A stretch of 64,000 nt of DNA from Candidatus Nealsonbacteria bacterium (GCA_047456315.1 CP179889.1:56966-120965); one strand, 5' to 3'; numbered from the stretch's first letter, positions 1,248 through 35,063 are shown. Notes: generated by a model not told the origin, from the letters alone. Numbers and translations are program-made.

Positions 1248-3056
1248 TTACTCGACTGTTACGCTTTTCGCCAAATTGCGGGGCTTGTCTACATCTTTTC
1301 CAAGCGACACAGCCATATAATACGCAAAAAGATGAAGCGGGATAACTGATAACATAGGAGTTAACATTTCCAAGGTCTTTGGTATATATATTACATCATC
1401 AACTAGTTCTTTTATCCTTTCATTGCCTTCAGTAGCAATTGCAAGGACCAGTCCTTTTCTTGCTTTTACCTCTTCAACACCTAAAATCATTTTATCGTAT
1501 ACAGAATCAGAAGGACAAATCGCTATTGTTGGAAAATTCTCATCAACCAAAGCCAGGGGCCCATGTTTTAATTCACCGCTGGCTCCTCCTTCGGCATGAA
1601 GATAAGAAATCTCTTTTAGTTTTAGAGCTCCTTCTAAAGCAATAGGAAAATTATATTTTCTTCCAATAAACCAGAAGTTTTTAAAATCTTTGTATTTTTC
1701 GGCTATGGCTTTGATTTGTTCTTTATTTTCTAAAATCTGTTTAGCTAATTCTGGCAGCTTTTTCAATTCTGAGGTAATCCTCTGGCCAAAAACAAGCGAC
1801 ATATTGCGCTGCCTTCCTAAATAAACTGAAAGCATTGCCAAGGTTGCTAATTGACCTAAAAATACTTTAGTTGAGGCAACAGCTATTTCAGGACCTGAAC
1901 GAGTATAAACTCCAGCATCTGTTTCTCTGGCTTGGGTTGAACCAACAACGTTTGTAACGCCTATTGTTAAGATTCCTTTTTTCTTCATTTCTGTTAACGC
2001 TGCCAGAGTATCAGCAGTTTCTCCTGATTGGGAAACAAACACAGCAACAGTATTTTTATCAATAATTGGTTTTCTGTATCTAAATTCAGAACCAATCTCT
2101 GCTTCAGATAAAATGCCTGCGTATTCTTCCAGCATGTATTTGCCAATTCTAGAAGCATAACCAGCAGTGCCACATGCAACTAAAACAATCCTGTTAATCT
2201 TGTTTAACTTATCTCTTACGCTATCCAACCCGCCAAGCTTTACTGTCCCTTCATCAGGAATCAATCTGCCTCTAATCGCATTTTCAATTGTTTCTGGCTC
2301 TTCCATTATTTCTTTAAGCATGAAATGCTCATATCCTTTTTTTTGGGCATCTTCTGGAGTCCAGTCAATAGAAGTCATTGGTTTCTCTTTAAGAATGAAA
2401 AAATCTTCTGGTTTTAGAACAGCAACTTCATTATCATCTAGAGTAATAACTTGCCTGGTATGGGTTATTATTGCTGCTGGATCAGATGCAATCAAAAGTT
2501 CATCCTTACCAATGCCTAAAATCATTGGTGAAGATAAACGAGCTGCAACAATCTTTTGAGGCTCTTTTTTAGACATTAAAGCAATGCCATATGTTCCTCT
2601 AACATCTTTTAGTATTTTTCTAAGCGCTTCTTCTAAACTGCCATTATAATTATCCTCAACTAAATGGCACAATACTTCAGTGTCTGTTTTACTGGTAAAT
2701 TTATGGCCTTTTGAAATTAATTTTTCCTTAAGCTCCTTATAGTTTTCAATAATTCCATTATGAACCAGGAAAATATTTCTATTACAGTCAAAATGAGGAT
2801 GAGCATTTTCATCTGTCACACCTCCTGTAGTCGCCCAACGAACGTGACCAAGCCCAGTAACCCCCTCAACAGTTAAATTAGAAAGATTTTCTGATCTTGA
2901 AATCTTGCCCACCTTCTTATAAACAAAAGGTTCTTTGTCTTTATTAAAAACACAAAAACCGTAGCTGTCATAGCCGCGGTATTCCATTCGCTTAAGCCCG
3001 GATAATAAAATCGGGAAGGCGGGTTTTTTACCTAAATAACCTATAATGCCGCACAT
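1248..3056 (-). CDS. glmS: glutamine--fructose-6-phosphate aminotransferase (isomerising)
   Basis: 602-aa ORF with an N-terminal MCGIIGY class-II glutamine amidotransferase start, followed by two SIS domains. Confidence 0.93.
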   Translation of the reverse strand: MCGIIGYLGKKPAFPILLSGLKRMEYRGYDSYGFCVFNKDKEPFVYKKVGKISRSENLSNLTVEGVTGLGHVRWATTGGVTDENAHPHFDCNRNIFLVHNGIIENYKELKEKLISKGHKFTSKTDTEVLCHLVEDNYNGSLEEALRKILKDVRGTYGIALMSKKEPQKIVAARLSSPMILGIGKDELLIASDPAAIITHTRQVITLDDNEVAVLKPEDFFILKEKPMTSIDWTPEDAQKKGYEHFMLKEIMEEPETIENAIRGRLIPDEGTVKLGGLDSVRDKLNKINRIVLVACGTAGYASRIGKYMLEEYAGILSEAEIGSEFRYRKPIIDKNTVAVFVSQSGETADTLAALTEMKKKGILTIGVTNVVGSTQARETDAGVYTRSGPEIAVASTKVFLGQLATLAMLSVYLGRQRNMSLVFGQRITSELKKLPELAKQILENKEQIKAIAEKYKDFKNFWFIGRKYNFPIALEGALKLKEISYLHAEGGASGELKHGPLALVDENFPTIAICPSDSVYDKMILGVEEVKARKGLVLAIATEGNERIKELVDDVIYIPKTLEMLTPMLSVIPLHLFAYYMAVSLGKDVDKPRNLAKSVTVE

Positions 3057-3059
3057 TGT

Positions 3060-5456
3060 TTAAATTACAATGTTTATTAATTTTCCTGGAACAAAAATTA
3101 TCTTTTTAATGCTTTTACTTAATATTCTTTTTTTAACTTTTTCACGATTTAGTGTCAAATCGCGCGCTTCATCCTCAGAAATATCAGCCTCTACCTCAAT
3201 TTTATCCCGAACCCTGCCATTAATCTGAATTATTAAGGTAATTGTTTTTTCTTCTGCTAACTTTTTGTCATATTTTGGCCAGGATTGATCATGAACTGAA
3301 TCTTTGTTGCCAATTTTTCTCCAAAGCTCTTCAGCAATATGGGGTGCAAATGGAGCCAGTAGCAACAGCATCCTTTCAATCACATCCTTTCCAACGCTGT
3401 CCTTGTTTTTAAAACTAAAATTAATAAATTCCATAAAAGCAGCCACTGCTGTATTAAACTTCATTTTTTCCATGTCAGTTTCTACTTTCCTATTAAGTTT
3501 GTGAATTTCTTTTATTGCACTATCAGAATTTTTTTTATTCTCGAAACAATCTAAAGTTAATTGCCAGACTCTGTTTAGAAATCTGTTAACACCTTTTACT
3601 CCTTTACTGTTCCAAGAAATTGCCTGCTCAAAAGGACCCATAAACATTTCATAAACTCTTAAAGTATCAGCTCCATGTTCTTTAACAATATTATCAGGGT
3701 TAATAACATTACCAAATGATTTTGACATTTTCCTGTTATCTTCAGCTAAAACAATTCCATGGGAAGTTCTTTTCACATATGGTTCTGGATGGGAAACAAC
3801 TTTAATATCATAAAGAAACTTGTATATAAACCTAGAGTATAAAAGATGTAAAGTAGTATGCTCCATCCCGCCATTATACCAGTCAACTGGCATCCAATAA
3901 TTTAATTTTTTCTTGTCAGCTATTTGTTTGTCATTTTTAGAATCAACATATCTTAAAAAATACCAGTTAGAACCAGCCCAGTTAGGCATTGTGTCAGTTT
4001 CTCTTTTTGCGCTGCTCTTGCACTTAGGACATTTAACGTTAACCCAATCACTTATTCCAGCTAAAGGAGACTCTCCAGTATCAGTTGGTTCATATTTTTT
4101 CACATAAGGAAGCTCAACTGGTAAATCTTTTTCAGAAACAGGAACAATCCCGCATCTTTCACAGTGAATAATGGGAATGGGCTCTCCCCAATAATGCTGA
4201 CGGGAAAATATCCAGTCTCTTAATTTATAGCGAATTTGTTTTTTTCCTAATTTTTTATTCTCAAACCATTTAGTTATTTTTTTAATTGCCTCTCCTGACT
4301 TCAAACCATTGAATTCTCCTGAATTAACTAAAGTTCCATATTCAACAAAAGCTTGTTTTGAAACATCTCCTCCTTTTATTACTTCTCTTATTTCTAGATT
4401 ATACTTCTTAGCAAAATCATAATCACGTTTATCATGAGCAGGAACAATCATTACAGCCCCTCCTCCATAAGTTGCAACTACATAGTCGCCAATCCAGACA
4501 GGAATCTTTTCATTATTTATTGGATTAATACAATATGAACCAGTGAATATTCCTGTTTTTTCCTTTTCGAGTTTTGTTCTTTCAAACTCTGTTTTATTCT
4601 TTGATTGTTTAATGTATTTCTCAACCGCGCTTTTATTTTCATCAGTTATTAGTTTTTCAACTAATTTATACTCAGGAGCTAAAACAACAGCTGTTACCCC
4701 AAAAATAGTATCAGCCCTGGTAGTAAAAACAGAGATAACATCGCTGGAGTTTTCAATTTTAAAATCAATGTCCACTCCATAACTTCTACCAATCCATTCA
4801 AGCTGTTGAGCTTTAATTCTTTCTAAATAATCAACTTTCTCTAAATCTTCAATTAACCTATCAGCATATTTTGTGATTTTAAGCATCCATTGTTTTAGTT
4901 TTTTTTGTGAAACTTTTGCCTTGCATCTTTCACATTTTCCATCAATAACCTCTTCATTTGCCAGGCCAATTTTACATGATGGACACCAGTTAATAGGCAT
5001 TTCATCCTGATAAGCAAGATCGTTCTCAAAAAGCTTTAAAAATATCCATTGAGTCCATTTATAATATTTAGGATCAGTTGTATTAACTTCTCTTGACCAA
5101 TCAAAAGAAAGACCTAAACTTTTAAGCTGTCTTGTATAGTTAGCAATATTCTTTTTAGTTACTTCAATTGGATGGATACCAGTCTTAATTGCATAGTTCT
5201 CAGTCGGCAGACCAAAAGCATCCCAGCCAATTGGAAACATTACATTGAATCCCTGCATTCTGTATTTTCTTGCTATTGCATCAAATGCTGAATAAGACCT
5301 ACAATGGCCAACATGAAGACCAACTCCAGATGGATATGGAAATTCAATTAAAACGTATTTTTTAGGCTTTTTTGAAAAATCCTGAGCTTTATAAAAATCA
5401 TGCTTCTCCCAGTATTTTTGCCATTTAGATTCTATCTCTTGAGATTTGTATTGCAT
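3060..5456 (-). CDS. leuS: leucyl-tRNA synthetase
   Basis: 798 aa; HIGH-type motif (HVGHCRSY) and KMSKS motif; length and architecture typical of LeuRS. Confidence 0.93.
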   Translation of the reverse strand: MQYKSQEIESKWQKYWEKHDFYKAQDFSKKPKKYVLIEFPYPSGVGLHVGHCRSYSAFDAIARKYRMQGFNVMFPIGWDAFGLPTENYAIKTGIHPIEVTKKNIANYTRQLKSLGLSFDWSREVNTTDPKYYKWTQWIFLKLFENDLAYQDEMPINWCPSCKIGLANEEVIDGKCERCKAKVSQKKLKQWMLKITKYADRLIEDLEKVDYLERIKAQQLEWIGRSYGVDIDFKIENSSDVISVFTTRADTIFGVTAVVLAPEYKLVEKLITDENKSAVEKYIKQSKNKTEFERTKLEKEKTGIFTGSYCINPINNEKIPVWIGDYVVATYGGGAVMIVPAHDKRDYDFAKKYNLEIREVIKGGDVSKQAFVEYGTLVNSGEFNGLKSGEAIKKITKWFENKKLGKKQIRYKLRDWIFSRQHYWGEPIPIIHCERCGIVPVSEKDLPVELPYVKKYEPTDTGESPLAGISDWVNVKCPKCKSSAKRETDTMPNWAGSNWYFLRYVDSKNDKQIADKKKLNYWMPVDWYNGGMEHTTLHLLYSRFIYKFLYDIKVVSHPEPYVKRTSHGIVLAEDNRKMSKSFGNVINPDNIVKEHGADTLRVYEMFMGPFEQAISWNSKGVKGVNRFLNRVWQLTLDCFENKKNSDSAIKEIHKLNRKVETDMEKMKFNTAVAAFMEFINFSFKNKDSVGKDVIERMLLLLAPFAPHIAEELWRKIGNKDSVHDQSWPKYDKKLAEEKTITLIIQINGRVRDKIEVEADISEDEARDLTLNREKVKKRILSKSIKKIIFVPGKLINIVI

Positions 5457-29285: not shown

Positions 29286-30461
29286 TTATTTTTTTATTCT
29301 ATTGTGCAGTCTCATATGACCCTCTTGAATTCCTTCTGAGACCAAAGCTCTTAGCGCTGCTAGGTTTTGAGCCAGACCAACACCAGCCATCACACAAGCT
29401 AATTCCTGGGCTGATTTCACGTTTAATATCTTTAAAGAAACCCTTGCTACTGGATTAGCTGATACTGTTCCCCCAATTATTCCAACTGCTATTGGAACTG
29501 TCATCTCTCCAATTAAATCTCCGCTACTGCTCTTTGTCCATCTGGTCAAGGGCAAGTATTTCCCTGATTTTGCTGCATAACCATGGGCTCCTGCTTCAAG
29601 AGCTCTCCAATCATTTGAAATGGCTAAAGCAACTGCCCCCATTCCATTTAAAATACCTTTATTATTAGTCACAGCCCTATAGATATCAATTTCAGCTATA
29701 GCTTGAGCTTTAATAATATCTTCAACTACTTGTTTACCTTTAAATCCTTTTGTTGTTAAAGATTCTTTTAAAACTTTTCCTTTAACTTTTACTAATCTTT
29801 TGTCAGCTAAATTAGAAACAATTTTAAGAACTGCTTTTTTGTTGACAATCTTTTCAATCAAAGGAGAAACACCTTCGAGCATTGTGTCTACTGTATTAGC
29901 TCCCATAGCATCTTTAGTATCTACCAGCAAATGAATTCTTAAAATTGCCCCTATATTTTTATTATTTAAAACAGTTATTTCTAAATCTTTTGCACCAGCG
30001 CCCATTCTTATTAAATCAGGTTGTTTGGAATTAGCTAGTTTAATAATCTCTTTTTTATTTTCTAAAATCTTTTCTTTAATTTTTTGAATATTTTCTATTT
30101 CCGTTAAATAAATCTGTCCTATCATCTGATTACCCAAATTCTCAGCTTCAATCCCTCCATTTTCTCTTAAAAGCTTTGCTCCATAGCAGGCTGCAGCAAC
30201 TACAGAAGGCTCTTCAGTTACCATTGGCACCAGATAATCCTTTTTATTTATCAAAAAGTTTACAGCAATACTATAAGGAAGCGAGAAAACACCAATCACA
30301 TTTTCAGCCATCCTGTCTCTTATTTCTGGCTTTAATGTGCCCTTTTCAATGATTTCAATTTCCTTGTCAGTTAAATCAGCAAATTCTTTTACTTTTTTAA
30401 GTTTTTGTTCTTTGTTTAGCTTAAAAAAACCAGGGATTCTGCTGTTTTTTTTCTTATCCAT
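29286..30461 (-). CDS. mvaA: hydroxymethylglutaryl-CoA reductase, class II
   Basis: ENVIGVFSLPYSIAVNFLINKKDYLVPMVTEEPSVVAAACYGAKL matches class II HMGR. The start is assigned to MDKKK (the ORF-track start is 84 nt further upstream). Confidence 0.88.
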   Translation of the reverse strand: MDKKKNSRIPGFFKLNKEQKLKKVKEFADLTDKEIEIIEKGTLKPEIRDRMAENVIGVFSLPYSIAVNFLINKKDYLVPMVTEEPSVVAAACYGAKLLRENGGIEAENLGNQMIGQIYLTEIENIQKIKEKILENKKEIIKLANSKQPDLIRMGAGAKDLEITVLNNKNIGAILRIHLLVDTKDAMGANTVDTMLEGVSPLIEKIVNKKAVLKIVSNLADKRLVKVKGKVLKESLTTKGFKGKQVVEDIIKAQAIAEIDIYRAVTNNKGILNGMGAVALAISNDWRALEAGAHGYAAKSGKYLPLTRWTKSSSGDLIGEMTVPIAVGIIGGTVSANPVARVSLKILNVKSAQELACVMAGVGLAQNLAALRALVSEGIQEGHMRLHNRIKK

Positions 30462-30500
30462 TAATTTAAGCTTATCCGATTTTTCTGCTAAAATCAAAGT

Positions 30501-30941
30501 ATGAAAATAATTACTGAGAACAAAAAAGCATATTTTAATTACCAAGTCCTGGAAAAATTTGAAGCAGGCATTTCTTTAATTGGACAGGAAGTAAAATCAA
30601 TTAAACTGGGAAAAATCAACCTGGCCGGAGCTTATGTCGTTCTAAGAAGGGAAGAAATCTATTTAATTGGAGCTAATGTTCCACCCTATCAGCCAAAAAA
30701 TGCACCTAAAGATTACGACTCTAAAAGGCCAAGAAAACTTCTTCTCAGAAAAAAAGAAATTAAATATTTAATAGGAAAATCAAGGCAAAAAGGTTTGACA
30801 ATGATACCTTTAATAATCTATACTAGGAAAGGTAAAATAAAGCTGGAATTCGGTTTAGCTAAGGGAAAGCGAAAATTTGATAAAAGAGAAGCTATAAAAA
30901 AAAGAGAAGTTCAAAGAGAAATCAAAAGAACATTAGGATAA
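30501..30941 (+). CDS. smpB: SsrA-binding protein SmpB
   Basis: 146 aa with NKKAYFNYQVLEKFEAGISLIGQEVKS, typical of SmpB. Confidence 0.92.
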   Translation: MKIITENKKAYFNYQVLEKFEAGISLIGQEVKSIKLGKINLAGAYVVLRREEIYLIGANVPPYQPKNAPKDYDSKRPRKLLLRKKEIKYLIGKSRQKGLTMIPLIIYTRKGKIKLEFGLAKGKRKFDKREAIKKREVQREIKRTLG

Positions 30942-30945
30942 AAAT

Positions 30946-31285
30946 GGGGACGTCAAGATTCGACAGGAATTTGAATAAAAAATGCAAGTCGAGCTTCGAA
31001 TCTCGTAAATCTTCGAAACAACATTAAGTGCCAATAACTTATTTGCACCCGCATTAGCTACTGCTTAATGCCGTCTGCCTTACTGATTCTCGATAGGTAA
31101 AAGCGGGCGTGATATTATCGGGATAGATAGTTTTTTAGGAACTGGGAAAACTATCAAAAATCAACAGAACAAAAATCAGAAAAATTTTGTCCAGTTTAAA
31201 TTTTCTGAGTTCAACTAACTGGGCTAAACTTGTAGAGTTATTTTAGAATAATTCCTGGACAAGGGGGCAGATCCCTTCGTCTCCA
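30946..31285 (+). ncRNA. ssrA: tmRNA (transfer-messenger RNA, ssrA)
   Basis: 5' GGGGACGUCAAGAUUCGACAGG (compare consensus GGGGCUGAUUCUGGAUUCGACGGG). The 3' end AAGGG-GGCAGAU-CCCUU-CGUCUCC-A gives an acceptor stem GGGGACG/CGUCUCC with a G3-U70 pair and discriminator A. It sits directly downstream of smpB. Candidate tag frame: GCC AAT AAC TTA TTT GCA CCC GCA TTA GCT ACT GCT TAA. Confidence 0.8.
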
Positions 31286-31287
31286 CT

Positions 31288-31788
31288 ATGTTTAAAATGG
31301 TAAAAACAAGTTATGGGAAAATAAAAAACCTTTCTAGCCCAGAGGCGGCTTATACGGCTGGCTTAATTGATGGAGACGGTACAATTGCTTTGAGTCGCTC
31401 TCAAAGCAAGAATCGAAATAAAAAAGAGTATCGCAGATTAGAAGTTAAAATAAGCAATACAGATTTTAATCTACTTAGTTATATTAAAAATATAGTCGGT
31501 GCCGGACAGATATCAAAGAAAAGGCCGCGCAATGAAAGACAGTCAATATCTTACGCATACAGAATCTGTAATCGACAAGCATTCAATCTTTTAACTCAGA
31601 TTTCATCCTGTCTTAAAACCTATAAGCAAAAACGTGCGAGGCTAGTTTTAGAAAATTATATAGAATTAACTCCCCGCAACGGAAAGTATTCCCAGGAAAT
31701 CCTTGCCAGAAAAAAACGATTCGTGAAAGCTTTTTTCGCTATACCATCGACAATGAAAATAAAGCCGAAAATCGCAAAATATTATTAG
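31288..31788 (+). CDS. LAGLIDADG-family homing endonuclease (single-motif, I-CreI-like size)
   Basis: 166 aa with AAYTAGLIDGDGTIAL (the LAGLIDADG motif). It starts 3 nt after the tmRNA 3' end. Confidence 0.75.
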   Translation: MFKMVKTSYGKIKNLSSPEAAYTAGLIDGDGTIALSRSQSKNRNKKEYRRLEVKISNTDFNLLSYIKNIVGAGQISKKRPRNERQSISYAYRICNRQAFNLLTQISSCLKTYKQKRARLVLENYIELTPRNGKYSQEILARKKRFVKAFFAIPSTMKIKPKIAKYY

Positions 31789-31798
31789 TTTTATTGCA

Positions 31799-32335
31799 TT
31801 GATTAAAAAACCATTAGTAAACAACAGAATAAGGGCTCGTGAAGTAAGGCTGATTGATGAGACCGGAAAGCAAGTCGGGGTTGTTCTATTGGAAAAAGCG
31901 CTCCAGATGGCTCAAGAGCGCAATTTAGACTTAGTTCAGGTTACAGATAAAGTTGAACCACCTGTCTGTAAGATTACAGATTATGGAAAATATCTTTACA
32001 AGCTTCAGAAAAAAGAGAAGAAAGAGAAAAAAACCAGCGAAATAAAGGGAATAAGATTAAGATTTAATATTTCTCCTCATGATATGGAAACAAGAGCCAA
32101 TCAGTCAGAAAAATTCTTAAGAAAAGGAAATCTGGTAAAAATAGAGATGTTGCTGCGAGGAAGAGAAAAAGGGCTTGGTCACTTTGCCAGAAAAAAGATA
32201 AATGACTTTGTACAAATCCTAAATGAGAAAATCCCAGTGAAAATTGAAAGCGCTTTAAAAAGAGCTCCCAATAAATTCATAATGATTGTTTCAAAAGATC
32301 AAAAACAGGAGGAAAGAAAGGAAGAAAATAAATAA
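31799..32335 (+). CDS. infC: translation initiation factor IF-3
   Basis: NNRIRAREVRLIDETGKQVGVV is typical of IF-3. It uses a non-AUG (TTG/ATT) start, as is common for infC. Confidence 0.9.
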   Translation: MIKKPLVNNRIRAREVRLIDETGKQVGVVLLEKALQMAQERNLDLVQVTDKVEPPVCKITDYGKYLYKLQKKEKKEKKTSEIKGIRLRFNISPHDMETRANQSEKFLRKGNLVKIEMLLRGREKGLGHFARKKINDFVQILNEKIPVKIESALKRAPNKFIMIVSKDQKQEERKEENK

Positions 32336-32336
32336 T

Positions 32337-32528
32337 ATGAAAACAAGAAAATCAGTAGCAAAACGTTTTAAAATAACAAGAACTGGCAAAGTTTTAAGAA
32401 GGGCGGTTGGCCTTTGTCATTACAGAGCTAAAAAATCAGGCAAACAAATCAGGAAAAGAAGAAAGCTTGTTCCTTTAGCGCCTGCTGAAGCAAAAAAAAT
32501 AAAAAAGATTCTTAAATACCAAAGATAA
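32337..32528 (+). CDS. rpmI: 50S ribosomal protein L35
   Basis: MKTRKSVAKRFKITRTGKVLRR; in the infC-rpmI-rplT operon context. Confidence 0.88.
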   Translation: MKTRKSVAKRFKITRTGKVLRRAVGLCHYRAKKSGKQIRKRRKLVPLAPAEAKKIKKILKYQR

Positions 32529-32920: not shown

Positions 32921-33343
32921 CTACAGTTTGTTTTTAATAATGAGATCATTAACTTTTTTTAAAACTTTCTTGGCATTTTCAAATGTTAATTGTTCTAGGG
33001 CTTTGTCATAAGGAAGCCATTTAAAACCAACATGTTCATAAGAAAGCTTGATTTCTTTTGTTTTGGTTTCAGCTAGAAAAAATATCACTGTTTTAAAAAT
33101 TGTTTTGCCTTGTTTTTTAAAAAAATACTCTATTTTTTCTTCAAGATTTTCAATAAATCTTAAATCATCAATCCCAGTCTCTTCTTTGGTCTCTCTCGTG
33201 ATTGTTTGTTTTAAATCTTCATTCCTTTCAATCTTGCCTTTAACAAAATCCCAATGCCCTAATTCATAATGCAAAACAAGGTAATAAATATTATTTTTGT
33301 CTTTTCTAAAGATTACTGCTCCAGCTGATTTTTCTACTGGCAT
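32921..33343 (-). CDS. NUDIX hydrolase
   Basis: Nudix box GKIERNEDLKQTITRETKEETGI (Gx5Ex7REUxEExGU). Confidence 0.8.
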   Translation of the reverse strand: MPVEKSAGAVIFRKDKNNIYYLVLHYELGHWDFVKGKIERNEDLKQTITRETKEETGIDDLRFIENLEEKIEYFFKKQGKTIFKTVIFFLAETKTKEIKLSYEHVGFKWLPYDKALEQLTFENAKKVLKKVNDLIIKNKL

Positions 33344-33344
33344 A

Positions 33345-35063
33345 CTACTGAAAATTCTTTAGTAATTTATTTAAAGGTTGAGTGTTTATAATATCTTTTT
33401 TTTCTGCCCAACCACGACGGGCCTGAGCTACTCCTAAGTTCATAAATTTCATATGTTCTTTGTGATGCGAATCTGTATTAATAATCATTTTCACTCCAGT
33501 TTCTTTAGACCTTCTAATATTTAAATCATTTAGGTCTAATCTTAGAGGATAAGCATTAATCTCTAAAACAACTCCAAACTCTTTTGCAGCTTTTAAAATT
33601 TTATCAAAATCTATTTCATACTCTTCTCTTTGTTTAAGCAGTCTTCCTGTTGGATGAGAAATTATATTAATGTGTCTATTTTTCATTGCCTTGATTATTC
33701 TTTTAGTCATTTCATCTTTTTTCATCTTAAGGCTTGAATGAATTCCAGCAATAACATAATCTAATTTTTTCAAGGCCTCGTCATTAATATCAATTGAACC
33801 GTCTTTTAAAATATTTGTTTCAGCGCCCTGAAGTACTTTAAACTTCTTCTTTGCAAACTTTTTATTCAACTTATCAATTTCTTTGCGTTGTTCTGATAAT
33901 TGCTTTTCATTTAAACCATGTTCAATTCTTAAAAACTTGGTGTGGTCTGAAATGCCGATGTATTCATAACCCATTTCCATTGCTTTTCTAGCCATTTCTG
34001 AAATTGAGTTTTCTCCTCCATTCCAGCTTGAGTGACAATGTAAATCTCCTTTAATGTCTTTTAACTGCAGTAATTTAGGAAGATTTCCTTTTAAAGCTGC
34101 TTCAATTTCTCCCTGGTCTTCTCTGAGTTCTGGGGGAACCCAGTCCATACCCAATAATCTATAAATTTCTTTTTCGTTTTTCCCTGCAATTTTTCTTTTT
34201 CCTTTAAATAAACCGTATTCATTAAGTTTTAGTCCTTTAGAAATTGCAATCTTTCTTGTAGCAATATTGTGTTCTTTTGAACCAATAAAATATTGAAGAG
34301 CAGCTCCATAGCTTTCTCTTGGAACAACTCTGATGTCAATATCAAAACCAGTTTTCATTCTTACTGATGCCCTGGTAGTTCCTTTGCTCCATACTTTTTC
34401 AATTCCATCTAAATTTACAAAAAAATCCATTACTTTTTTTGGTTTTTTAGAAGCCACCAAAATATCAATATCCTTTATTGTTTCTCTCATTCTTTTTAAA
34501 GAGCCAACTATATCAATTTTTTCAACTTCTTTTAATCTTTCTAATCTTTCATAAATTTCTTGAGCTACTGGTAGAATTTCTCCCAATAAAAATCTTCCTT
34601 TTCCTTTTTTCAAAAACTCAATACCCTCTAAAATGTTTTTTTCTGTTTTTTCTCCAAAGCCAAAAAGAGGCGCGATTTTATGCGCCTTAGCTGCTTTTTC
34701 TAATTGCTTAACATTTCTAATTCCTATTTTTTGATATAGTGTCTTGATTTTTTTAGGACCCAATCCTTCAACAGCAGTTAAAGCGCTCAAGTCAACTGGA
34801 GATCTTTTTTTAAGATTTTCGTATTCTTTAATTTTTCCAGTTTTTAAATACTCTTCAATCTTTAAGGCAATATTCTTACCCACACCAGGTATTTTATCGA
34901 GCCCTTTTAATCCTTCTTTAAAATAAATATCAGAAACACTTCTTTCTAAATTCTCCAAAGTTAAAGCAACTCTCTGATAAGCACGGGGTTTAAAAGGAAC
35001 TTCTTCCATTTCTAAATATTCTGAGATTTCGTAAAATATTTTGGCAATTTCTTGGTTTTTCAT
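33345..35063 (-). CDS. polX: DNA polymerase X family protein with a PHP domain
   Basis: N-terminal HhH motifs (GIGKNIALKIEEYL, GLGPKKIKTLY), a Pol beta-like core, and a C-terminal PHP domain (DLHCHSSWNGGENSI...TDSHH). Confidence 0.85.
   Translation of the reverse strand: MKNQEIAKIFYEISEYLEMEEVPFKPRAYQRVALTLENLERSVSDIYFKEGLKGLDKIPGVGKNIALKIEEYLKTGKIKEYENLKKRSPVDLSALTAVEGLGPKKIKTLYQKIGIRNVKQLEKAAKAHKIAPLFGFGEKTEKNILEGIEFLKKGKGRFLLGEILPVAQEIYERLERLKEVEKIDIVGSLKRMRETIKDIDILVASKKPKKVMDFFVNLDGIEKVWSKGTTRASVRMKTGFDIDIRVVPRESYGAALQYFIGSKEHNIATRKIAISKGLKLNEYGLFKGKRKIAGKNEKEIYRLLGMDWVPPELREDQGEIEAALKGNLPKLLQLKDIKGDLHCHSSWNGGENSISEMARKAMEMGYEYIGISDHTKFLRIEHGLNEKQLSEQRKEIDKLNKKFAKKKFKVLQGAETNILKDGSIDINDEALKKLDYVIAGIHSSLKMKKDEMTKRIIKAMKNRHINIISHPTGRLLKQREEYEIDFDKILKAAKEFGVVLEINAYPLRLDLNDLNIRRSKETGVKMIINTDSHHKEHMKFMNLGVAQARRGWAEKKDIINTQPLNKLLKNFQ

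Follow-up and report, generated by a model that had tools for sequence, protein, structure and literature searches.

We describe a putative homing endonuclease gene (HEG) in a stretch of 64,000 nucleotides (nt) from Candidatus Nealsonbacteria, a lineage of the Candidate Phyla Radiation (CPR) (GCA_047456315.1, CP179889.1:56966-120965). The whole stretch is referred to as the window, and positions are counted from its first letter. The gene, an intact open reading frame (ORF) of 166 amino acids with an ATG start (31288-31788, + strand), is very probably a free-standing LAGLIDADG HEG of the homodimeric type, which was inserted, as a bare ORF, precisely at the 3' end of a normal, uninterrupted transfer-messenger RNA (tmRNA) gene, ssrA, in the spacer between ssrA and infC, and which belongs to a family linked to ssrA 3' ends in several phyla and in phages. 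The identification was based on Pfam, homologues and predicted fold. The ORF itself is of an ordinary selfish-gene type, and existing annotation already names it a LAGLIDADG endonuclease; what is new lies at the level of the family, whose free-standing, ssrA-flanking members are mostly partnered with group I introns that interrupt the tmRNA T-loop and have no ORF of their own. A preliminary description, made from the sequence of the window, had offered two readings of this ORF: a free-standing HEG that invaded the ssrA-infC spacer, or a sign that ssrA is interrupted by an intron or is a split gene. The first was supported by the present analysis and the second was not.

The endonuclease protein

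The product scored 39 bits with the Pfam model LAGLIDADG_1, above the cutoff of 23.1 (E 1.5e-9). It has one motif in its 166 residues, YTAGLIDGDGTIAL (residues 22-35; 31351-31392, + strand), which was placed by the family alignment and by alignment with I-CreI, contains GLIDGDG and carries the acidic metal-binding residue. In the profile alignment, D30 corresponded to the catalytic D20 of I-CreI and K113 to K98. When 21 members of the family from several phyla were aligned, D28, G29 and K113 were invariant, residue 30 was always D or E, and G31 was nearly invariant; a C-terminal motif, LTPRNGKY, was also invariant and specific to the family. All 13 invariant and 24 near-invariant positions, the catalytic D and K included, are kept in the window ORF. 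It has 38 homologues, the top one being an NCBI record of exactly this protein, encoded on a 647-kb contig (LAGLIDADG family homing endonuclease, Candidatus Nealsonbacteria).

An AlphaFold2 model built on the 21 family members (pLDDT 87.4) predicted an alpha-beta-beta-alpha-beta-beta-alpha core followed by C-terminal helices, with helices at residues 17-30, 60-70 and 95-108 and strands at 31-37, 49-57, 74-78 and 88-94. In a Foldseek comparison with the PDB, I-CreI was the top match, and I-MsoI and I-CvuI were also found (E ~1e-8, TM score 0.64-0.73). Sequence-profile searches of the PDB returned I-MsoI and I-CreI as well, the second-best match being the bI3 maturase (2ab5). The three chloroplast enzymes, which are encoded in 23S rRNA introns of green algae, resemble the window protein in size (~160 amino acids), in having one motif and in predicted fold; they differ in that identity is 20-26%, the window ORF is not intron-encoded and LTPRNGKY is missing in I-CreI. 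Enzymes of the I-CreI type work as homodimers on pseudo-palindromic sites of ~22 bp. Taken together, the protein looks like an active single-motif enzyme of this homodimeric type, as judged from its sequence and model. The single motif and I-CreI-type size noted in the preliminary description were upheld by the I-CreI-like model and the conserved D20 and K98 equivalents.

No NCBIfam model matched the HEG family. PHROG 5046 matched the window protein (31288-31785; E 2.5e-19) under the label 'HNH endonuclease'. Since the family is LAGLIDADG, this label and those of several phage GenBank entries are wrong.

The junction with the tmRNA gene

The tmRNA gene upstream of the ORF (30946-31285 to the discriminator base, + strand; Rfam RF00023 and sequence) is of standard form, unsplit and without an intron. 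RF00023 matched 30946-31288 contiguously over the full model (1-374; 139 bits, E 2e-54), and this was the sole Rfam match in the whole window. The full covariance-model match, an acceptor stem with a G3:U pair and a tag reading frame, GCC AAT ... GCT TAA, which, on direct reading of the sequence, encodes ANNLFAPALATA, are the features of a standard tmRNA. ARAGORN found neither tmRNA nor tRNA genes across the 64-kb window. Rfam was therefore needed to define the tmRNA, and standard annotation would thus miss ssrA and leave the HEG ORF an apparent orphan.

The tmRNA's 3' end could be read from the sequence. The T-arm (31261-31277, + strand) has the stem AAGGG (31261-31265) paired with CCCTT (31273-31277) and the loop GGCAGAT (31266-31272). 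It is followed by the insertion junction (31278-31287, + strand), which comprises the acceptor 3' strand CGTCTCC (31278-31284), paired with the 5' strand GGGGACG, the discriminator A31285 and then C and T, after which the HEG starts at 31288. Because the ATG follows A31285-C-T, the A of the start codon lies at the site of the terminal A of CCA, and the CCA tail is not encoded, since the genome reads CTA. Thus, the preliminary claims that a 166-residue LAGLIDADG ORF abuts the tmRNA 3' end and starts 3 nt after the acceptor strand were accurate in every particular, and the covariance search that it had advised served to define the tmRNA.

Occurrence and decay in CPR relatives

A metagenome scan with the SmpB protein encoded in the window yielded the 80 closest loci (67-85% identity; loci of relatives are labelled L001 and so on). 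Nearly all scorable ones had the order smpB-ssrA-infC with a short spacer, and the ORF was present in just one of them, L114. The nearest two relatives, L092 (85% SmpB identity) and L093 (82%), had no ORF. In relatives without the HEG, infC begins 8-150 nt past the tmRNA and the spacer is short and A/T-rich, and the smpB-ssrA-(HEG)-infC synteny is kept in CPR relatives. In the SmpB tree, HEG-bearing loci were scattered among those without the gene, and their HEGs formed one clade in the HEG tree. At the six CPR loci whose ORF has the same orientation as that of the window, the junction was identical, discriminator(A)-C-N-ATG-TT(A/T)-AA, and the ORF ended no more than ~40 nt before infC. In the window, the insert between the tmRNA end and infC amounts to ~513 nt and is essentially a bare ORF, with 10 nt (31789-31798) between its stop codon and the infC start.

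At the same junction in L013, the species representative of a Nealsonbacteria species, the HEG is fragmented (336-888) into a 32-residue N-terminal piece ending in a stop codon and a 56-residue C-terminal piece and is hence a pseudogene. Sporadic occupancy of a fixed site together with a degenerate copy, the hallmark of a mobile element, was thus observed. Because the gene is patchy and decays in L013, the pattern is that of the HEG life cycle (invasion, persistence and decay) rather than that of a conserved host gene. The preliminary description had proposed to compare this spacer among relatives and had regarded an ORF conserved everywhere, with no sign of mobility, as evidence against a homing gene; the patchy distribution is the opposite of that. 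Its free-standing invader is also supported by the I-CreI-like fold and by an ORF that nearly fills a site where relatives have a spacer of 8-150 nt. No recent co-converted flank could be detected: the IF3 protein of the window was nearest to those of the HEG-less L092 (77%) and L093 (76%), compared with 68% for the HEG-bearing L001.

T-loops of CPR tmRNAs

The preliminary description was right that the T-loop GGCAGAT is non-canonical. Its position is homologous to the site at which group I introns are found in other phyla (TTCGAT^T, see below). However, relatives without the ORF have such loops as a rule. A nearly identical loop, GGCAGAA, occurs in the HEG-less L128 and L156 and recurs on differing T-stems, and other relatives without the ORF have AGCAAAA, TCCAAAT or one of many 6-nt loops such as TTCGCC. 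T-loops were hypervariable in the CPR clade (L092-L171), with 19 distinct loops among the 26 strictly resolved loci; only five of the 26 had the canonical TTCRANN, and half of the loops were 6 nt long. The tmRNAs of the window and L092 are ~93% identical, but their T-loops differ at 5 of 7 positions, against 21 of the 333 other positions (Fisher P 3e-5).

On comparison of these sequences, the odd T-loop is a lineage trait, which probably also explains the failure of ARAGORN. We considered GGCAGAT as an intron scar or as a mutation conferring immunity to the HEG and rejected it as a diagnostic feature, because relatives without the HEG also have this loop type and further unusual ones; for the same reason, the loop does not hint at an intron in the window, as had been suggested. 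The hypervariability could be caused by relaxed constraint or by conflict with an element that targets the T-loop. As for a baseline from tRNA T-loops, tRNA genes were detected by ARAGORN neither in the window nor in those CPR loci for which its output was examined. As a practical matter, it should be noted that CPR tmRNAs with odd T-loops escape ARAGORN.

A family tied to tmRNA genes across phyla and phages

Relatives of the HEG were collected by a scan of one genome per species, which gave at least 138 species, chiefly of Gammaproteobacteria, Nitrospirota and CPR. The best 80 loci were mostly from Gammaproteobacteria (including the cultured Halieaceae Seongchinamella, Parahaliea and Pseudohalioglobus) and Nitrospirota, together with a few CPR lineages, one Fraserbacteria genome and one Anaerolineae (Chloroflexota) genome. 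At every resolvable homologue locus, a tmRNA gene adjoined the HEG. For example, the tmRNA was directly upstream of the HEG and unrelated genes were downstream in L009 (a 3.9-Mb contig), L008 (a 603-kb contig) and L010. At four loci of CPR type, namely those of Ryanbacteria, Kaiserbacteria and Saccharibacteria and L039, the HEG was convergent with the tmRNA gene, 23-117 nt from its 3' end. Thus, the HEG family is linked to the ssrA 3' end rather than to infC.

More distant relatives (28-39% identity) on viral contigs were located beside phage tmRNA genes, some of them permuted, or within tRNA arrays. The distant phage-type relatives comprised L172 and L175-L178 (viral contigs), L174, L181, L185, L189, L194, L195 and L213. 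The last of these is the cultured Sphingobium phage Lacusarx (2447-3335), in which a homologue labelled 'HNH endonuclease' overlaps the annotated ssrA by ~50 nt.

Partnership with T-loop introns in other phyla

In relatives outside the CPR, the Rfam tmRNA match breaks off in the T-loop, and the rest of the T-arm and acceptor (T-CCCGC-CGCCTCC-ACCA) resumes 250-450 nt further on. We classified the layout of the best 80 loci with scripts anchored on the tmRNA acceptor stem. At least 57 of them had an insert in the T-loop at TTCGAT^T and the HEG 27-247 nt past the tmRNA 3' end; the HEG was inside the insert at one locus only (L066). Six loci were intron-less with the HEG and tmRNA on the same strand, four were intron-less with the HEG convergent, and 12, mostly at contig ends, were left unassigned. 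A looser script found a T-loop insert in 66 of 84 loci and a long internal ORF, again, in L066 alone. At the 57 loci, the inserts are 250-450 nt long and contain no ORF, and the HEG lies just 3' of a 17-nt 3' exon. In L009, for instance, the order is 5' exon, a 261-nt intron, the 17-nt 3' exon, a terminator hairpin, a promoter-like TATAAT and the HEG.

The Rfam model Intron_gpI was detected in three of the 15 intron-form loci searched (L008-L010 and 12 others), all below the gathering score (E 1.5e-7, 1.6e-5 and 2.7e-4). Because this model is insensitive here, the identity of the inserts as introns also rests on the exact restoration of the T-arm, on core motifs that the inserts have in common and on their position, T-loop position 7, which is the main published site of tmRNA introns (PMC11915505). 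T-loop group I introns had been mentioned in the preliminary description, and this was a good lead: most non-CPR relatives of the ORF adjoin an intron-bearing tmRNA.

In L066 (Candidatus Fraserbacteria, 2143-3220), the HEG lies within a T-loop group I intron; it starts ~13 nt past the 5' splice site, its 3' end extends into the intron core, and it is sister to the CPR clade of the window in the HEG tree. In four Halieaceae loci (L059, L070, L084 and L085, including cultured Seongchinamella), the tmRNA has no intron and is followed by the HEG after 175-300 nt. The T-loop of these tmRNAs is TTCGAGA or TTCGAAA, whereas all intron-bearing loci restore TTCGATT. The four HEGs are nested in the intron-associated clade, and their closest HEG relatives accompany intron-bearing tmRNAs, which suggests, from these sequences, that in Halieaceae the intron may have been lost together with a change of the site.

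Neighbouring genes and expression

The gene order around the ORF is smpB, ssrA, the 166-residue ORF, infC, rpmI and rplT, all on the + strand. The upstream flank, smpB (30501-30941, +; Pfam SmpB, E 5.7e-51), encodes the protein partner of tmRNA, and the downstream flank, infC (31799-32335, +; Pfam IF3_N and IF3_C), encodes translation initiation factor 3 (IF3). The infC gene seemingly starts at a non-ATG codon, TTG or ATT in ATTGAT(T/A)AAAAA, both in the window (31795-31801) and in L092-L171. In addition, a full-length HMG-CoA reductase gene (29286-30545, - strand; Pfam E 8e-103) adjoins smpB, which deserves mention given the reduced metabolism. On the 3' side of rplT are genes for a NUDIX hydrolase (32921-33343, -) and for PolX, a family-X DNA polymerase with a PHP domain (33345-35063, -); PolX also directly follows rplT in the Gribaldobacteria loci L003-L005.

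A promoter-like site, TTGACA-18-TATACT, which matches the consensus at 11 of 12 positions, is located within the 3' part of smpB (30795-30824, +). Lying ~120 nt upstream of ssrA, it is a candidate ssrA promoter. No terminator-like site was found from this site or ssrA to the end of rplT. The HEG would probably be expressed by read-through from the ssrA promoter. More speculatively, tmRNA 3' processing could release a nearly leaderless HEG-infC mRNA, an idea that comes from the lack of a terminator between ssrA and rplT, the promoter-like site upstream and the location of the ATG two bases past the discriminator at six of six CPR loci. Since infC starts within a few bases of the end of the tmRNA or the HEG, infC-rpmI-rplT is probably transcribed from the ssrA promoter throughout the clade, and, to judge from the layout, its message is probably freed by tmRNA 3' processing across the whole clade.

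Discussion

If the gene behaves as a free-standing HEG, the enzyme would, as we propose with moderate confidence, cut ssrA alleles that have no ORF, in or near the conserved, partly palindromic DNA of the T-arm and acceptor. A partly palindromic segment of this kind would suit a homodimeric LAGLIDADG enzyme. The cut would be repaired from an ORF-bearing copy, with the conserved ssrA and infC flanks as homology, and the gene would be copied in. Alleles with the ORF, an intron or an altered site might escape cutting, and the T-loop variability of the CPR might reflect homing conflict rather than relaxed constraint; both of these suggestions are weaker than the former.

Several observations weigh against an actively homing gene in this lineage. 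The base composition of the HEG is that of its flanks, with no anomaly, and hence the gene is not a recent arrival. The window ORF is 56-67% identical to the other CPR copies, similar to the SmpB and IF3 proteins of the same loci; since the HEGs have diverged about as much as host genes, the CPR HEG clade is old, and ancient vertical descent with many losses would fit these sequences as well as repeated transfer. Since T-arm sequences vary greatly in the CPR, little conservation would be expected of a T-arm target in this clade. The HEG start codon is not preceded by an evident Shine-Dalgarno sequence. It should also be noted that some loci counted as HEG-less in the SmpB tree stop soon after smpB and are in truth unscored. 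The same ordinary composition, the divergence as deep as that of host genes, the decayed copy at the same site in L013 and the few evident conserved targets left by variable T-arms would be expected if the ORF were a fixed relic, that is, a formerly mobile HEG that is now an immobile, still intact passenger heading for decay. We consider this unlikely, as the ORF has kept its catalytic residues along with every invariant and near-invariant family position, and intact copies in several scattered lineages are not easily accounted for unless the element is under selection.

The other explanations are less probable still. A domesticated LAGLIDADG protein kept by cell-level selection, either as a maturase or chaperone of the tmRNA or its intron or as a DNA-binding regulator of ssrA-infC, could account for the constant junction at six CPR loci and the likely co-transcription with ssrA and infC. 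LAGLIDADG maturases exist, one of them (bI3) was the second-best sequence match in the PDB, and in other phyla the gene accompanies an intron that lacks an ORF and might require assistance. However, such a role is quite improbable: only one of the scorable loci among the 80 closest SmpB relatives carries the gene, the nearest two lack it, the copy in L013 is a pseudogene, and the genome of the window has no intron to mature. Moreover, maturases often lose the catalytic acidic residue, which is conserved here. An intron-encoded ORF or a split or permuted, two-piece tmRNA in the window would have been in keeping with the association of the ORF's relatives with T-loop introns, one of them intron-internal, with the non-canonical loop and with the failure of ARAGORN on this tmRNA. 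It is essentially refuted by the end-to-end contiguous Rfam match, with intact T-arm and acceptor stem, and by the lack of a group I signal: in a permissive Rfam search of 30400-32400, which takes in the region that the preliminary description had advised to search for an intron core, Intron_gpI had no match at E<=10 and permuted tmRNA gave weak, sub-threshold matches only. Furthermore, the ORF starts past the discriminator, and the same loop type is present in relatives without the ORF. Hardly any weight can likewise be given to a remnant of an integrase-mediated island or prophage, although the 3' end of ssrA is a classic target of integration (PMC11915505). The insert is just ~513 nt with a single ORF, and infC-rpmI-rplT directly follows it as in relatives without the ORF. 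No integrase gene was found nearby in the ORF and Pfam survey, the ssrA 3' end was not found duplicated elsewhere in the window, and no att-like repeat was seen to flank the ORF; the absence of integrase and repeat refutes this origin.

A free-standing HEG thus remains the preferred explanation, and it may be compared with known systems. In the 2025 tmRNA database, a LAGLIDADG gene is located inside the intron, in P7.1 or after P9, for 36 of 883 intron-form tmRNAs (4.1%), a low share that was contrasted with archaeal rRNA introns (PMC11915505). Endonuclease genes outside the tmRNA are not mentioned there, and the words 'downstream' and 'free-standing' are absent from its text. These intron-internal genes share with ours the host gene ssrA and the superfamily, and the relative L066 is one of their kind at T-loop position 7; in contrast, the window gene lies past the tmRNA 3' end with no intron, and at least 57 relatives are also outside. 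Another parallel in layout is the collaborative, or trans, homing of phages, as described for T4 mobE with the nrdB intron and I-TevIII (PMC2790892) and for the cyanophage enzyme F-CphI with the psbA intron (PMC6083498). There, the HEG is just outside a gene whose intron has no working ORF, and the intron is expected to shield the site and to be co-mobilised. The layout of the relatives, with intron, 17-nt exon, ~50-100 nt and then the HEG, fits this arrangement. However, the phage cases concern protein genes and enzymes of HNH or Endo VII type, whereas here a cellular RNA gene and a LAGLIDADG enzyme are concerned; an adjacent ORF-less intron is present in at least 57 relatives of other phyla, and the window HEG has no intron at all. 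Free-standing HEGs also occur in phage tRNA clusters, such as that of T4 SegB, a GIY-YIG enzyme. The distant phage relatives of the ORF in tRNA arrays or beside phage tmRNA genes are similarly placed, but SegB belongs to another enzyme family and to phage rather than cellular genomes.

We tentatively consider, as a possibility that is more doubtful than not, that the family is the mobility engine of the ORF-less T-loop introns. The homodimeric enzyme would cut the near-palindromic T-arm of naive ssrA and bring itself and, if there is one, the adjacent intron across the 17-nt exon, the intron or T-loop mutations would immunise, the T-loop variability of the CPR, with the concentrated differences between the window and L092, would be a scar of this process, and expression would be tied to tmRNA maturation. 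The restored TTCGATT of intron-bearing alleles, set against TTCGAGA or TTCGAAA in the intron-less, HEG-bearing alleles of Halieaceae, is an indirect hint in this direction.

No description of an ssrA-flanking LAGLIDADG family with ORF-less introns was found in full-text literature searches, and the family is apparently undescribed, with a prior description elsewhere being possible. Searches centred on introns overlook a HEG parked just outside the gene, at least in the proteobacterial and Nitrospira subset. A HEG beside the intron offers a testable explanation for the spread of those ORF-less introns; if true, the range of collaborative homing would widen from protein genes of phages to an RNA gene of cells. 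The family also provides natural meganucleases for which candidate targets can readily be listed.

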